UHGV virus genome: UHGV-2167056
Direction: 5' to 3' (one strand)
DNA length: 32,938 bases
DNA from: a virus
Part shown: piece by piece, positions 1 to 24,537 of the stretch
Position numbering within the stretch: the first letter of the stretch is position 1
Layout: each line of letters starts with the position of its first letter
The notes under the pieces: model-generated
The model's database searches: none
Told to the model about the DNA's origin: nothing
Seen by the model: only the letters and a program-made list of their open reading frames with translations
Position numbers and translations under genes: made by a program

Positions 1-4
1 GGCT

Positions 5-30
5 TTCCTGAAAACCTCGGTTTACGGGAA
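5..30. other. hix/gix-like site-specific inversion crossover site (left)
   Basis: Plus strand reads TTCCTGAAAACC-TC-GGTTTACGGGAA, two imperfectly palindromic 12-bp half-sites around a 2-bp core. It closely resembles the Hin hixL and Gin gix sites as I recall them. Confidence 0.7.
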
Positions 31-86
31 ACGGTAAACAGGGCGGCGAATGCCCTGCCATCGGACGGCACCGCCGTTGCCGCGAA
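19..86. repeat. Inverted-repeat arm (left) of invertible segment
   Basis: About 68 bp that is roughly 94% identical to the reverse complement of 1299..1366, including a perfect 32-bp core CTGCCATCGGACGGCACCGCCGTTGCCGCGAA at 55..86. Confidence 0.8.
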
Positions 87-378
87 CAGGCTGGCAAATG
101 CCCACACAATTAATGGTGTTCCCTTTGACGGGACGCAGGACATAAACATCACTTCTGGTATAACACAGCAGGATGCGGATTCCCGATATATCCAGGATAT
201 CAGGCTGGGAGCAGAGAACAGGCAGGTAATGTACGGTGGGGCATATTACTCTGCGTACGGTAATGTTATGGCAGGCCTGCAGATTGACAGTAAAGTTGAT
301 GCTTCAAACGATTTTATAGCATTCAGACCCCTGCAAAAATTAGTCGGAGGTACATGGATTACGGTATCTCAGTTATAA
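19..378 (+). other. Silent alternative tail-fibre C-terminal cassette (Sv'-like), with no start codon of its own; would be fused to the constant fibre N-terminus after inversion
   Basis: Frame 1 is open from position 1 to the TAA at 376..378. Its translation parallels residues 178-303 of the minus-strand fibre and ends in the motif FRPLQKLVGGTWITVSQL, similar to the other fibre's C-terminus and to P2 gpH-type fibre ends. Confidence 0.6.
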
Positions 379-429
379 ATAGTCAGTAAATAATATATTT
401 TAAAACAGATTTATTTCCAGGAGGATTTT

Positions 430-951
430 ATGGAACTAAAAAATATAACCCGTTATTATCCTGAAAATATGCCATATGGTAATAATGTTCAGTATTTCCA
501 GAGTGAAGATGGTAAGGATTTCTACGAATCCCTGCCATTATTCACCAAAAAATATAAACTTTGCATAACCCCTGACAGCGGTGTTATCTGCTCAATATCA
601 CAGGATGCTTCGGCGCTGTATCCTGCGGGTTTTTCCGTTGTTGAGACAGACGAATTACCTGAAGGTACTGATATTTCAGGTAACTGGAAGTTTGATAATG
701 GTGTCATCTCACAACTCCCGGTTAACTATACCAAAAAAGCGGAAGCACTGCGCCAGTCATATCTTAATCAGGCATATGAAAAGATTAATGACTGGAGAAC
801 TGAGTTACAGCTGGGCACGATTAGTGATGAAAACAGAGCTGCGCTTACACGATGGATGAAATACATCAGTCAGGTGAAAAAAATGGAACTACCAGCGATT
901 AAAAACAAAGCTGAATTTGACGCCATTAAATGGCCGGAGAAGCCTGAATAA
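430..951 (+). CDS. Tail fibre assembly (chaperone) protein, U'-like, inside the invertible segment
   Basis: 173-aa ORF with a strong AGGAGG Shine-Dalgarno upstream; directly follows the alternative fibre cassette; Tfa-like size; AT-rich. Family assignment is by position and general resemblance. Confidence 0.6.
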   Translation: MELKNITRYYPENMPYGNNVQYFQSEDGKDFYESLPLFTKKYKLCITPDSGVICSISQDASALYPAGFSVVETDELPEGTDISGNWKFDNGVISQLPVNYTKKAEALRQSYLNQAYEKINDWRTELQLGTISDENRAALTRWMKYISQVKKMELPAIKNKAEFDAIKWPEKPE

Positions 952-985
952 CATAAAGGGTGCTTATCGCACCCTTTTCCTTTAA

Positions 986-1897
986 TCAGACGGATGAAAC
1001 TGTGCGCCAGGCATTACCGATATATATCTGCACCGGACGGTAATAAACGCCTCCGATATTATCGGCTGAACTTTTCCCGGTATCCTGCACGTTAATGCCT
1101 GAAAGCATACAACCAGAAGGTGCACCATAACTCCAGGACATTTCATTACCTCCGGGTGAATGGTAACTCTGGGCACCAAGCTGAACGTTGCTAACGTATT
1201 TGTTATCAGCAGTAGCTTCAGTCATACCGGAGGTAATGTATATGTCCTGCGTCCCGTCAAAAGGAACGCCATTAATATTTCTTGGGGTGGAGAGTTTATT
1301 CGCGGCAACGGCGGTGCCGTCCGATGGCAGAGCATTCGCCGCCTTATTCACCGTTTCCCGTAAACCGACGTTATCGATAAAAGCCCCTTTATCCGGAATG
1401 TCTGCGCCGTTCTGCTCCCTGCGCAGGTAACGGTTATCACCTTCGCTTTTGCTGTAAACATCCAGATTATTACGGGCGGTTCCCTTATTCTCCAGGTCGG
1501 CGAGATTCTGATCCTTCGCCAGGGCATTAACGTCACCGGGACCAAGACTGTTTTTTGTGGCAAGTGTCCCCAGACCAAGATAACCACGGGCCAGACGCTG
1601 GGCCTCCGCACCGGCATCAGCAATTTCTTTCAGGTTATTTTTCCGGGAAAAGGCATTCGCAGCGATAATGGCTTTAATGGACAGCGTAAGCTGGTTTAAC
1701 TGCGCCTTATCCGGCTGAATACTGGCTTCAGCCAGAATATTCAGCAGTTCGGCCTGGAGAATATTCAGCCAGTCCTGACCAATCCAGCTGATACCTTTTT
1801 GTCCGTCACCTTCGGTAAACCAGGTGGTGGTATTACTCTGCGCCGGTGCCAGCGCAGGCATATTCGCCACGCCGGAATTATTATCAACATGAAACAT
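986..1897 (-). CDS. Tail fibre protein (Mu S-like): constant N-terminal part 1367..1897 plus currently joined variable C-terminus 986..1366
   Basis: 303-aa ORF at the end of the tail operon; start overlaps the upstream gene's stop (TTAATG); the crossover site lies within the ORF at codons 173-181. Confidence 0.8.
   Translation of the reverse strand: MFHVDNNSGVANMPALAPAQSNTTTWFTEGDGQKGISWIGQDWLNILQAELLNILAEASIQPDKAQLNQLTLSIKAIIAANAFSRKNNLKEIADAGAEAQRLARGYLGLGTLATKNSLGPGDVNALAKDQNLADLENKGTARNNLDVYSKSEGDNRYLRREQNGADIPDKGAFIDNVGLRETVNKAANALPSDGTAVAANKLSTPRNINGVPFDGTQDIYITSGMTEATADNKYVSNVQLGAQSYHSPGGNEMSWSYGAPSGCMLSGINVQDTGKSSADNIGGVYYRPVQIYIGNAWRTVSSV
1299..1366. repeat. Inverted-repeat arm (right) of invertible segment
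   Basis: Reverse complement matches 19..86; it encodes the same peptide (GLRETVN.AANALPSDGTAVAAN) in both alternative fibre C-termini. Confidence 0.8.
1355..1380. other. hix/gix-like site-specific inversion crossover site (right), inside the tail-fibre ORF
   Basis: Minus strand reads TTATCGATAACG-TC-GGTTTACGGGAA. The inner half-site is identical to the inner half-site of the 5..30 site and in inverted orientation; the core dinucleotide is compatible. Confidence 0.7.
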
Positions 1898-2457
1898 TAA
1901 ATAGTCTCCTCTTCATGGCTGTTTGCATAAACGTAAATAAACGTCTGCCATGCAGGCTTATAACGGTTCAGAATACATTCCAGCGCACCGCCTTCATAAA
2001 TACGCAGCGGCGTGAGAATATCATCCAGCACATTCATATTCCGGTAGCCGGTTTCACTGTTAATCGTGACAATACTGACCCACTGCGAATCCGGTGAGGG
2101 CTGAATGTCAATCTGATAACCAAACTCCGCCGCAAACCGGATATAAAATTCACGGTTCAGCGAGGGCTTCATCCGGTATTTATTGCCGGCATAACGCTGT
2201 CGCTCCGTGAGGGTGGCTCCGGCCATATCACACTCGGGAAGCCCGAGATAACGCTCCCAGTCTTCCAGCAGCAGGCGCGACGTGTCAGGGAAACGCTCGG
2301 CAAGCAGCTGTTTACCCGTCCAGGATACACGCGCTGTCGAATGACTGAGGCCCAGACATAATGATGCCAGTACGGATGACGGACGCTTGTCCCATGCCAG
2401 CCCGTCAGGCAGTAACTGCAACAGGGCGCGCTGATGTGGGGTCAGGGTTACAGCCAT
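1897..2457 (-). CDS. Tail/baseplate protein, Mu gp48-like (DUF2313/YmfQ-like)
   Basis: 186-aa ORF at the position of Mu R between baseplate J and the tail fibre; translationally coupled. Confidence 0.6.
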   Translation of the reverse strand: MAVTLTPHQRALLQLLPDGLAWDKRPSSVLASLCLGLSHSTARVSWTGKQLLAERFPDTSRLLLEDWERYLGLPECDMAGATLTERQRYAGNKYRMKPSLNREFYIRFAAEFGYQIDIQPSPDSQWVSIVTINSETGYRNMNVLDDILTPLRIYEGGALECILNRYKPAWQTFIYVYANSHEEETI

Positions 2458-3530
2458 GTGATTTCTCCTACCGTCAGCAGCTCACTGTCTCCCGCCTGAA
2501 CTGACGTCAGCGGACTGCGCACTTCAAAATCCTCCAGATTTTTCACCCCTGCCACCGCCCGCCAGAAAGACGACGGCAGAACCAGACCGCCGGGCCGGGA
2601 TTCGTTGTATAACAGGTCGGTCAGCGCCTGTTTTACGGCCGCCTGATTCTCCGGTGTTTTCGGGATGATCCTGATGCTGAAGGGCACCGGCTTATTGGTC
2701 AGTTTAAACACGGTCACCGTCGGCCCCAGAGGCTGTCCGACAGGCTGGCCGGTCGCCGGATCATCATGACTGCGGATATAATCCGCCACCCGCTGAACAT
2801 CACCGTCACCGGGGAAAATATCCGGGTTATTATCCTGAACAAACGTTACCCCCACGCTGCCCGCCTGCGGCCATTCCGGGCGGCACCATGCCCGCGTCAC
2901 GCCCGGCACTTCACGCGCCCAGCGTTCAAAATCATACTGCGTGCCGCCGGACGGTGGATTCTGCACCCGGAAAACCAGACGGGAAAGCAGCTCCGGCACG
3001 GTTTCCACATCCGCACCACCGGTGATCCCCGTTCCGGTCACCGTGGCCGTCTGGTTGATCCCCGCCTGCGGTGTGATAAATGTCAGTTTTGTCCCTGCCG
3101 GGGCATTCCCCGCACGACCGGCACTTTCGGCTTCCACACTGACATTCAGCGTACCGGCCTTACCGGTCAGTGAGGTGGTGATACGGTAAACCACGCCATC
3201 ACTTCGCTGGAGAAGCACACCTTCCTTGATCCCCGCATCCGTGGTCAGCATCAGCTGAACCGGCCCGTCCCCCCGAGAGGCAGGCTTACGCATGACGCCC
3301 CAGAATGCACAGTGTTTCAGCAGTTCGGCTTCATCGGCTTCGGTCGGGATGATCTGACGCGCAATCCAGGCCAGATGCTCATGCTCCTGAGCAGATAACC
3401 CTGCCTGAGCGTAAGCAATGGCATTCAGGGTGGTTTCATTCACACCCGGCTGCGAGCCGGGCAGGCGCTGGCTGATATCCTGCTGTGTCTGCGTGATTAA
3501 CTGTGCCAGCGGTAAAGGCTGATAAGGCAT
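2448..3530 (-). CDS. Baseplate J-like protein (Mu gp47-like)
   Basis: 360-aa ORF; size and position match Mu W / baseplate J family. Confidence 0.7.
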   Translation of the reverse strand: MPYQPLPLAQLITQTQQDISQRLPGSQPGVNETTLNAIAYAQAGLSAQEHEHLAWIARQIIPTEADEAELLKHCAFWGVMRKPASRGDGPVQLMLTTDAGIKEGVLLQRSDGVVYRITTSLTGKAGTLNVSVEAESAGRAGNAPAGTKLTFITPQAGINQTATVTGTGITGGADVETVPELLSRLVFRVQNPPSGGTQYDFERWAREVPGVTRAWCRPEWPQAGSVGVTFVQDNNPDIFPGDGDVQRVADYIRSHDDPATGQPVGQPLGPTVTVFKLTNKPVPFSIRIIPKTPENQAAVKQALTDLLYNESRPGGLVLPSSFWRAVAGVKNLEDFEVRSPLTSVQAGDSELLTVGEITWL

Positions 3531-15298: not shown

Positions 15299-15475
15299 TC
15301 CGGCAGCATAAGCCGGTGTTTTTCGGGGCCGGTTTTGCGGGACTTCAGAAAGTGCTGACAGGGGAAAAATGAGAAAGGCGCTTCACGCAGATTTTAAAGC
15401 CCGTTAAATACAGGTTAGAAAATCACGACACGCGCCTGAAGAGGGTAAGGCAATGCGTTTGTATACCTTAAACCA
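15299..15475 (-). promoter_or_regulatory. Candidate activator-dependent late promoter (PI-like) in the G-I intergenic gap
   Basis: 177-nt non-coding gap in an otherwise tightly packed operon, at the position of the Mu PI late promoter. Contains TTTTTCCC on the coding strand, the same motif seen upstream of the endolysin gene. Confidence 0.35.
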
Positions 15476-23460: not shown

Positions 23461-23531
23461 TGTTACGCTGTCTCATGGTGTTCTCTGAGTCAGCGTAACC
23501 GTGGGAAAAAGTGGGCAGGATTTGCGGAATA
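23461..23531 (-). promoter_or_regulatory. Candidate late promoter / regulatory region upstream of the endolysin gene (Plys-like), with a perfect 9-bp dyad
   Basis: 71-nt gap at the position of Mu Plys. GTTACGCTG at 23462..23470 and its reverse complement at 23491..23499, with a 20-nt spacer, end 2 nt from the lys ATG. TTTTTCCC on the coding strand about 50 nt upstream. Confidence 0.35.
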
Positions 23532-23954
23532 TCAGAAAAGCCGTGGCTGCGTGCGTTCCTGATGCAGGCGACGCTGGTTGCGGATAACGGAGTAAATCTG
23601 CGTCTCTGACATCTGGTAGTGGCGGCGCAGGGTTTCAATTTTTTCGCCCTGGCTCCAGCGGGAAAAAATTTCATTATTGCGCAGTTCGGTGAAAAGGGAT
23701 TCACCGACCGGGAGATAATAACCACGCCCGCCCATGTACCCGGCCTGTGCGGCTGCAACCTTACGGGCAAGCATTCCCGCCTGAGCAGGTTCAATCCCCT
23801 GACGGTGCAGTTCAGCACTGATCACATCAACCAGGTCCCGCAGCGTGCCGGGCCAGTTCTTTTTCAGCTCATCATCAGGAATATCATCCAGACGGTCAAT
23901 CAGCGCGTGCAGCTGTTCGCTGTCACCAAACATGCTCATCTGTGTTTCAGCCAT
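23532..23954 (-). CDS. Mor/C-family transcriptional activator
   Basis: 140-aa ORF whose C-terminal half (GGRGYYLPVGESLFTELRNNEIFSRW...IYSVIRNQRRL) has the Mor/C-family pattern. It sits between gemA-like and lys, where Mu has mor and C. Confidence 0.75.
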   Translation of the reverse strand: MAETQMSMFGDSEQLHALIDRLDDIPDDELKKNWPGTLRDLVDVISAELHRQGIEPAQAGMLARKVAAAQAGYMGGRGYYLPVGESLFTELRNNEIFSRWSQGEKIETLRRHYQMSETQIYSVIRNQRRLHQERTQPRLF

Positions 23955-24024: not shown

Positions 24025-24537
24025 TTAAAAGGGGGAGGATTCTTCATACAGCCTGCAAACGCGCTCATAACTCATCACTGTACGCGCTGACATCCCCAGC
24101 ACATCCAGCATCTTGCGGCGGTGCCAGCGTTTGAGACGCTCCAGCACATCAGAGGCCAGCGCGGGGTGTTGTTCCAGCCACTGCCAGTTAGCCACACCTT
24201 CGCCGCCGTTCTGAGCGGCCGTCTGCGATTTCACCCAGCGGTTAAGGGCTGTTTCCCCGCCATCAGAGATAAAGCCCTGCCGGTGCATCACCTTCCAGAT
24301 GGCGCGAATTTTGGCGGTCACCGTACCCGGTTTTAAGGCCCGGTTAACCGGCTTCTGACGCACTTTAAAACCGCGTTTTTTGAAAACATCCAGCACGCGG
24401 GATAACTCATCCGGTGACATATCCCGGCAACTGGGTTTGCCGGTGGCTGCCAGTAGTACGGATGTGTAGGTCTCATGGTCAAGCTGTAGATCGCGTTTTG
24501 CGACATGTATTAAGGTAATCAGGGAAGCGCGATTCAT
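24025..24537 (-). CDS. gemA: GemA-like protein (Mu gp16 family, DUF1018)
   Basis: 170-aa ORF immediately upstream of the Mor-like gene, as in Mu. Confidence 0.7.
   Translation of the reverse strand: MNRASLITLIHVAKRDLQLDHETYTSVLLAATGKPSCRDMSPDELSRVLDVFKKRGFKVRQKPVNRALKPGTVTAKIRAIWKVMHRQGFISDGGETALNRWVKSQTAAQNGGEGVANWQWLEQHPALASDVLERLKRWHRRKMLDVLGMSARTVMSYERVCRLYEESSPF

Follow-up and report, generated by a model that had tools for sequence, protein, structure and literature searches.

The virus genome UHGV-2167056 (32,938 nt, here called the window, which means the whole stretch analysed) belongs to an Escherichia coli Mu-like prophage of the Sp18 type (O157 Sakai), and its left end is the right end of the prophage. 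At this end lies an invertible Gin-type cassette (about 18..1367, ~1.35 kb), which holds two alternative tips of the tail fibre and a single tail fibre assembly gene (tfa, product Tfa). The tip that is now expressed runs convergent with tfa and is called here the orphan tip, and the silent one, which is followed by tfa on the same strand, the partner tip; the two states of the switch are termed orphan-on and partner-on. The single-tfa layout is family-wide and is not a local deletion in this prophage. The explanation preferred here, tentatively and with a probability of roughly 0.45, is that one generalist Tfa may serve both tips of the Sp18-type cassette.

One chaperone gene, two fibre tips

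The product of tfa (430..951, plus strand, 173 aa) is predicted to be a tail fibre assembly protein of the Mu U type. It matches PF02413 (Caudo_TAP, E 1e-20, 74.5 bits against a gathering cut-off of 22.1), phrog_136 (E 4e-56), and Mu U (PDB 5yvq_B, E 1.6e-15) over residues 18-153, N-domain included. The gene is located downstream of the silent tip and is co-oriented with it (51-nt spacer), and it converges with the expressed fibre gene (986..1897, minus strand, 303 aa). An earlier, sequence-only reading of this DNA had noted that the silent orientation alone is followed by a co-oriented tfa, unlike in Mu with its U and U', and the open reading frames (ORFs) and strands confirm this.

No second Tfa was found in the region 380-990 when all frames were checked down to 20 aa. 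The longest minus-strand ORF between 430 and 986 has 61 aa (522-707) and no Pfam match; a minus-strand Tfa in a missed frame, which the earlier reading had named as a point that would count against it, is not hidden there. Searches of the 32.9-kb window with the family HMM on the six-frame translation and by tblastn with 8 diverse Tfa queries gave no other Tfa either. A weak match at 24229-24411 was rejected as a Tfa, being GemA. Instead of one Tfa per alternative tip, as in the pairs S-U and S'-U', the cassette and the window have one in total. The end of the expressed fibre at 986, convergent with tfa, was read correctly before; the end of tfa (951) and the stop codon of the fibre gene (986-988) are 34 nt apart, not 35 nt.

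Both tips are of Mu S type. Residues 1-198 of the expressed fibre match the N-termini of Mu S and S' (E 1e-43), the whole protein falls into phrog_1833 (E 1e-161), and its last ~75 residues match the Mu S tip (5yvq_A residues 434-503), the part that was crystallised with chaperone U. The orphan tip also matches the tip of the phiTE short tail fibre (STF; 9cuy_c, E 4e-15). The silent tip matches the Mu S tip as well (5yvq_A residues 435-502, E 3e-6) and is homologous end to end to fibre residues 173-303, with 48% identity over 131 aa; in flipped relatives it is joined to the constant part and gives a 296-aa fibre.

An intramolecular chaperone domain of the T5 pb1/endosialidase type, which the sequence-only reading had named as a further point that would count against it, was not found in the 303-aa fibre. 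There is no Pfam match, and the final residues of the fibre align with the last ones of Mu S (503 of 504) and of the phiTE STF (553 of 554). Since the fibre ends where Mu S ends, and Mu S needs U, such a domain is absent. The orphan tip has no C-terminal extension and nothing else that sets it apart from the chaperone-associated relatives compared.

Conservation of the layout in the prophage family

Relatives were gathered by a fibre-based and an invertase-based scan of IMG/VR and from loci in complete genomes, and Tfa, tips, invertase and repeats were mapped in all of them. Tfa-based scans of genome contigs contributed little: the first gave no match, and the second, with alignment, two loci only. 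Of the 5,426 complete E. coli genomes searched, 232 matched the family, in 233 records.

Exactly one 173-aa tfa occupies the same position in 22/22 distinct gin-linked cassettes recovered, and the layout is also present in the window itself and in five further complete-genome loci. In every intact cassette tfa is downstream of the partner tip and convergent with the orphan tip, with 31-34 nt from the end of tfa to the stop of the orphan tip. The cassettes that share this arrangement are otherwise diverse: their partner tips form four classes with 26-47% identity over the final 70 aa, their orphan tips form two related classes, their leaders are of three types (51, 79, and ~120 nt), and their invertases are of two types (78-100% identity). 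In an O157:H7 locus (L063), recombinase, single tfa, 303-aa fibre and YmfQ/gp48 follow in the same order as in the window. The orphan slot always holds one related tip class; the partner slot holds four classes. Purifying selection is seen on both tips and on tfa.

The switch is live, as both orientations occur in isolates. Two loci (L003, L004) carry the alleles of the window in the flipped state, in which the orphan tip is the silent copy and the 296-aa fibre is co-oriented with tfa. Among the distinct cassettes 17 are orphan-on and five partner-on. Ten IMG/VR contigs of relatives (L033-L039, L043-L045) end at fibre residues 169-226, around the crossover site and repeat; these ends, like the start of the window itself, look like assembly breakage from mixed orientations in the sequenced cultures.

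As a separate observation, two IMG/VR records from one source genome (L032 and L041; UViG_2617271340_000017 and _000003) have the same cassette alleles in opposite orientations, which suggests two prophage copies or a mixed population.

Evidence for a proposed shared chaperone

Tips of the orphan class are recognised by the signature VQDxGxxxADNxGGVYYRPxQ, and in four other settings they have a Tfa gene 1-14 nt downstream: SfMu (gp52-gp51), the P2-like Peduovirus P2_2H4 (gp20-gp21), the lytic Cronobacter phage CR3 (gp028-gp029), and another Mu-like prophage (locus L005). The orphan tip class is thus normally chaperone-associated. The closest relative of the window Tfa outside the family is the Tfa of L005 (55% identity over the full length), which stands behind an orphan-class tip. 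CR3 gp029, also behind an orphan-class tip, has the N-terminal signature of the window Tfa, GxxVQYFxxxxGxDFYESLxLFTKKY.

Within the family the Tfa N-domain is 74-97% identical across the four partner-tip classes, and the N-domain of Mu U is the fibre-binding domain (PMC9608196). SfMu gp51 and Mu U share 94% identity even though the fibres of these two phages bear different tip classes. The presence of Tfa beside orphan-class tips elsewhere, together with an N-domain conserved over four tip classes, makes one generalist Tfa the best reading of the cassette. The two other ways out offered earlier, folding without a dedicated chaperone and a chaperone made from its own promoter, look alike at the level of sequence; the comparative data favour a shared generalist chaperone, but the sequence scans identified no promoter. 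Covariation of Tfa alleles with orphan and partner tips was considered as a further test and rejected, as it is confounded by physical linkage.

Single-Tfa cassettes are found in at least three invertase-linked lineages besides this family. Three gix-like sites and three tips are present in a more distant Mu-like phage (L052 6819-9223, IMG/VR UViG_2878893965_000006), whose invertase has 65% identity. Its only Tfa, of 229 aa, is encoded convergent with the 472-aa fibre now expressed, and two of the three tips would become co-oriented with Tfa after inversion. In a relative of this phage, L049, both Tfa genes of the canonical layout are found. Another locus (L114 5590-6900) combines three tips and one Tfa with a fibre family that differs from that of the window, and two further loci (L080 6240-6530, L091 5574-5815) are the two orientations of yet another single-Tfa cassette, again of a different fibre family. 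On the strand of its orphan tip, L080 still encodes the N-terminal 62 aa of a second Tfa (E 4e-18), a stub which shows a route from two Tfa genes to one. Canonical two-Tfa cassettes were met in the same survey in L049, L060, L083, L089, L110, L117, and L126.

Expression of tfa in the two orientations

Inversion between the two gix-like sites joins the constant fibre N-terminus to one of two Mu-S-type tips. Under the shared-chaperone explanation, the late operon would provide a common transcript for fibre and tfa in the partner-on state. In the orphan-on state, as in the window, tfa is antisense to the late operon, and Tfa would require a plus-strand transcript with its start upstream of 430, in the leader, the silent tip or the invertase-proximal region. 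A hairpin at 955-977, between the convergent stops, would end both transcripts and limit their collision. It has a 9-bp stem and folds with -14.8 and -15.3 kcal/mol on the two strands (z -5.0 and -4.1), better than any shuffled sequence; the plus strand ends in the tail UUUUCCUUU, the terminator scan flags the hairpin on the minus strand, and the structure as a whole is like a bidirectional terminator. Both the action of Tfa on the orphan tip and the expression of tfa in the convergent orientation are what we infer from these comparisons.

Indirect hints of autonomous tfa expression come from the long co-inherited leaders, the strong ribosome-binding site and the bidirectional hairpin. The spacers before tfa are 51, 79, or ~120 nt in the family vs 1-14 nt in canonical fibre-Tfa pairs. 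The leaders travel with tfa through tip replacements, and the 51-nt leader, which is unstructured, is found with tfa behind two different partner-tip classes.

The ~120-nt spacer (L040 6955-7074, also in L042 and L017) preserves what is left of the end of an older tip, LINGSWRTAGSA with its stop, which indicates that partner tips were replaced by insertion upstream of an existing tip end. Two promoter-like sites, noticed on the minus strand, face the silent tip and the invertase. One, TGGAAA-16-TATATT, is in the tfa leader (392-419); the other, CTGTCA-16-TATATT, is inside tfa (551-578) and is kept in L002 and L040. The total number of such hits was close to what chance would give.

Several results speak against a generalist Tfa. 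No plus-strand sigma-70 consensus promoter was detected upstream of tfa in the three spacer types and the locked derivative scanned, and the number of promoter hits in each region scanned was close to that expected from shuffled sequence. Upstream of lys (23514-23538) and of the gene for a protease/scaffold (I-like) protein (15327-15351) the minus strand carries a shared 25-nt motif, TTTCTGAnnTnCCGCAAAnCCnGCC, for which chance would give 0 matches. This motif is a candidate box for the Mor/C-family late activator encoded at 23532-23954, but neither the surroundings of tfa nor any of the leaders contains a copy. No inward promoter common to the two invertase-proximal intergenic types is evident, these being unrelated and giving 8-of-12 matches by eye. 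The support for Tfa binding to the orphan tip is comparative, not direct, and linkage together with recombination blocks can account for the way in which Tfa and tip alleles vary. Finally, the tfa alleles of the locked loci described below are recombinant, with dS in tfa ~7x the divergence of the adjacent remnant DNA.

In locked derivatives (L002 3700-3960, NZ_AP022811; also L009-L012, L018, L025, and L028) all that is left of the invertase gene is its final ~60 nt, joined to the final ~20 codons of a partner tip. These derivatives have lost invertase and partner tip, express the orphan fibre and keep an intact convergent tfa; the locked junction was found in 7 of the 5,426 complete E. coli genomes. 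The retained tfa is compatible with a need for it in the orphan-on state and is weak evidence for it. Its dN/dS in these loci (0.11-0.23) was rejected as a decisive test of selection because the alleles are recombinant, mosaic and imported.

Alternative explanations

The strongest competitor, which is judged rather unlikely, is that the orphan fibre matures without the phage's own Tfa, either unaided, with host chaperones, or with the Tfa of a co-resident prophage, so that tfa would matter only in the partner-on orientation. The antisense position of tfa and the failure to detect either of the tested promoter kinds fit this possibility. It also agrees with a locus (L023) that keeps only the C-terminal 75 codons of tfa beside an orphan-on fibre, and with the 62-aa stub in L080, which suggests that a lineage can tolerate losing a Tfa at least for a time. 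Cross-complementation by heterologous Tfa proteins is known, lambda Tfa acting for T4 gp38. On the other hand, Mu U mutants are fibre-less, orphan-class tips elsewhere consistently have a Tfa downstream, and the orphan tip lacks any extension or other feature to distinguish it from relatives that are associated with a chaperone. Dependence on a resident prophage would, moreover, be unreliable for a family as widespread as this one.

A second alternative takes the asymmetry itself as part of the host-range logic. The switch would toggle between a Tfa-capped fibre in the partner-on state, where Tfa aids receptor binding, and a bare orphan tip that binds its receptor directly; as an explanation of the window this is improbable. 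Secondary literature describes Mu Tfa as staying in the mature virion on the distal fibre and contributing to receptor recognition (PMC9608196; PMC11915804, with reference to North and Davidson 2021), and such retention would favour a capped fibre. Also in favour, one tip only is co-oriented with tfa in every family member, and the one related class in the orphan slot contrasts with the four in the partner slot. Against it, the same orphan class has an adjacent Tfa in SfMu, P2-like phages, CR3 and L005, and the scheme would still demand chaperone-free folding of the orphan tip. The broader form of the idea, in which the invertase toggles a tip together with a virion-retained, receptor-binding Tfa cap as a recurrent design, draws on the occurrence of the layout in at least four invertase-linked phage lineages and is quite doubtful too.

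It is very unlikely that orphan-on is a non-productive state that yields fibre-less particles or particles with misfolded fibres, as was suggested for this orientation from gene order, the sole point in its favour being the lack of a co-oriented chaperone. All 15 DNA alleles of the orphan-slot tip are intact, and their dN/dS is 0.05-0.13, with dS between 0.8 and more than 2. Intact tips under such strong purifying selection indicate that this state is no dead end. Recombination has exchanged the two orphan classes, and orphan-on is the majority state among sequenced lysogens (17/22 distinct cassettes).

That a second Tfa was recently deleted or has decayed in this prophage alone is scarcely tenable, since the comparison with homologous prophages finds the layout unchanged whichever of six tip classes, three leader types or two invertase types is present, and again in the Sp18-type prophages of O157:H7, even if some relatives are rearranged (the locked loci with their invertase stub; L031 and L046, which carry frameshifts).

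Significance of a single chaperone

In the textbook view, which is derived from Mu and P1, every alternative fibre has its own cognate chaperone. A widespread E. coli prophage family, including the O157:H7 Sp18-type prophages, manages with one, and several unrelated invertase cassettes have the same single-chaperone layout. If one Tfa serves very different tips, the specificity of the chaperone would lie in the conserved C-terminal strands of the tip, with the pattern YRPxQxxxNGxWxxxS, and not in its receptor-binding loops, and one generic chaperone could be supplied for many tips in host-range engineering of phages, pyocins and tailocins. The layout also raises the question of how a gene within a flipping segment is expressed in both orientations.

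Anatomy of the cassette and its surroundings

The constant 5' part of the fibre gene is outside the invertible segment, and the alternative 3' parts are inside, in opposite orientations. The segment is bounded by an inverted repeat with a left, invertase-proximal arm at 1..164 (repeat pairs I1 and I2) and a right arm at 1221..1384, within the fibre gene, as found by inverted-repeat search and alignment. The left arm is 86% identical to the reverse complement of 1185-1384 over 200 alignment columns, and the alignment is near-perfect in columns 17-87 and 109-164.

Each arm carries a gix/hix-like crossover site of 26 bp. The first (5..30) reads TTCCTGAAAACC-TC-GGTTTACGGGAA, and the second (1355..1380, fibre codons ~173-181) reads TTATCGATAACG-TC-GGTTTACGGGAA in reverse complement, so that the sites share the core dinucleotide TC and the inner half-site and differ in their outer half-sites. 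The 19-mer TCGGTTTACGGGAAACGGT has exactly two copies in the window, inverted to each other, with 0.01 expected by chance. Features of multiple-inversion systems (Min- or shufflon-like) are absent from the window, where this core 19-mer occurs only twice and just two tips were detected. The extent of about 18..1367 follows from the positions of the two sites. The earlier claim that the segment is invertible is borne out by the inverted repeats, the gix-like sites and the flipped relatives; the end coordinate of the earlier finding, 1366, falls inside the repeat.

The silent, promoterless partner tip (Sv') occupies 1..378 on the plus strand, in frame 1, with its stop at 376-378. It is followed by the AT-rich 51-nt leader (379..429, plus strand), which contains the ribosome-binding site AGGAGG. 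On the minus strand, the expressed fibre gene is composed of the constant part (1381-1897), outside the crossover sites, a repeat-encoded part (1221-1380), and the orphan receptor-binding tip (986-1220). The late genes of the prophage are on the minus strand; upstream of the fibre in the late operon are a gene for a Mu gp48-type baseplate wedge protein (1897..2457, PF10076, E 7.5e-22) and gp47 (2448-3530).

The window begins 4 nt ahead of the invertase-proximal crossover site, and the invertase itself is therefore off-window. Its position was deduced from two E. coli loci that are 96-99% identical to the window (L001, L003), in which the gene for a 190-aa recombinase (PF00239 Resolvase and HTH_7) lies 62 nt past window base 1. 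Beyond the invertase, such loci have DUF6645/SASA, DUF1378, and DUF826 cargo genes, followed by com and mom. In L001 (1227-3281) and its homologs this off-window cargo encodes a 682-aa protein with DUF6645 and a SASA domain, as well as the DUF1378 and DUF826 proteins.

Comparison with known systems

The cassette resembles the G segment of Mu (S, U, U', S', gin) in its adjacent serine invertase, in the 26-bp gix-like sites with a TC core, and in the position of a constant fibre N-terminus outside and alternative tips inside in opposite orientation. Mu S, S' and U are homologues of its fibre N-terminus, its two tips and its Tfa; the convergent genes are separated by a terminator hairpin, and the segment is flanked by gp47 and gp48 at one end and by com and mom at the other. 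The layout of the Mu G segment is shared by SfMu. Unlike Mu and SfMu, the window has one Tfa instead of two, and its cassette is 1.35 kb vs 3.1 kb in SfMu. The fibres of the family have 296 and 303 aa vs 504 aa in Mu, and a leader of 51-120 nt precedes tfa vs 1-2 nt in SfMu.

Sp18 of the Sakai strain is in the same prophage family as the window; the O157 locus differs from it in the partner tip and in the leader (~120 nt in O157, 51 nt in the window). Sp18 was predicted to be intact, its DNA is packaged, Mu-like particles seen by electron microscopy were assigned to it by morphology, and its invertible region was noted to contain genes that differ from those of Mu (PMC2669165). The single-chaperone asymmetry is not discussed in the literature searched. 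The layout is a conserved, recurrent variant of the Mu G-segment kind that this literature has apparently left undiscussed.

In cassettes of the Min type and in those of L052, L114, and L080/L091, as in the window, an invertase of the Gin family swaps tips and one Tfa is present for two or three of them. Min of p15B is a multiple-inversion fibre cassette, and L052, L114, and L080/L091 differ from the window in having three crossover sites or another Tfa/tip family. T4 gp57A, a general fibre chaperone that is encoded apart from the fibre genes and serves several fibre proteins, has no sequence relationship to the window Tfa and lies outside any invertible element. If the Tfa of the Sp18-type cassette is a generalist, the two would be alike in principle, each being one independently expressed chaperone for several fibres.

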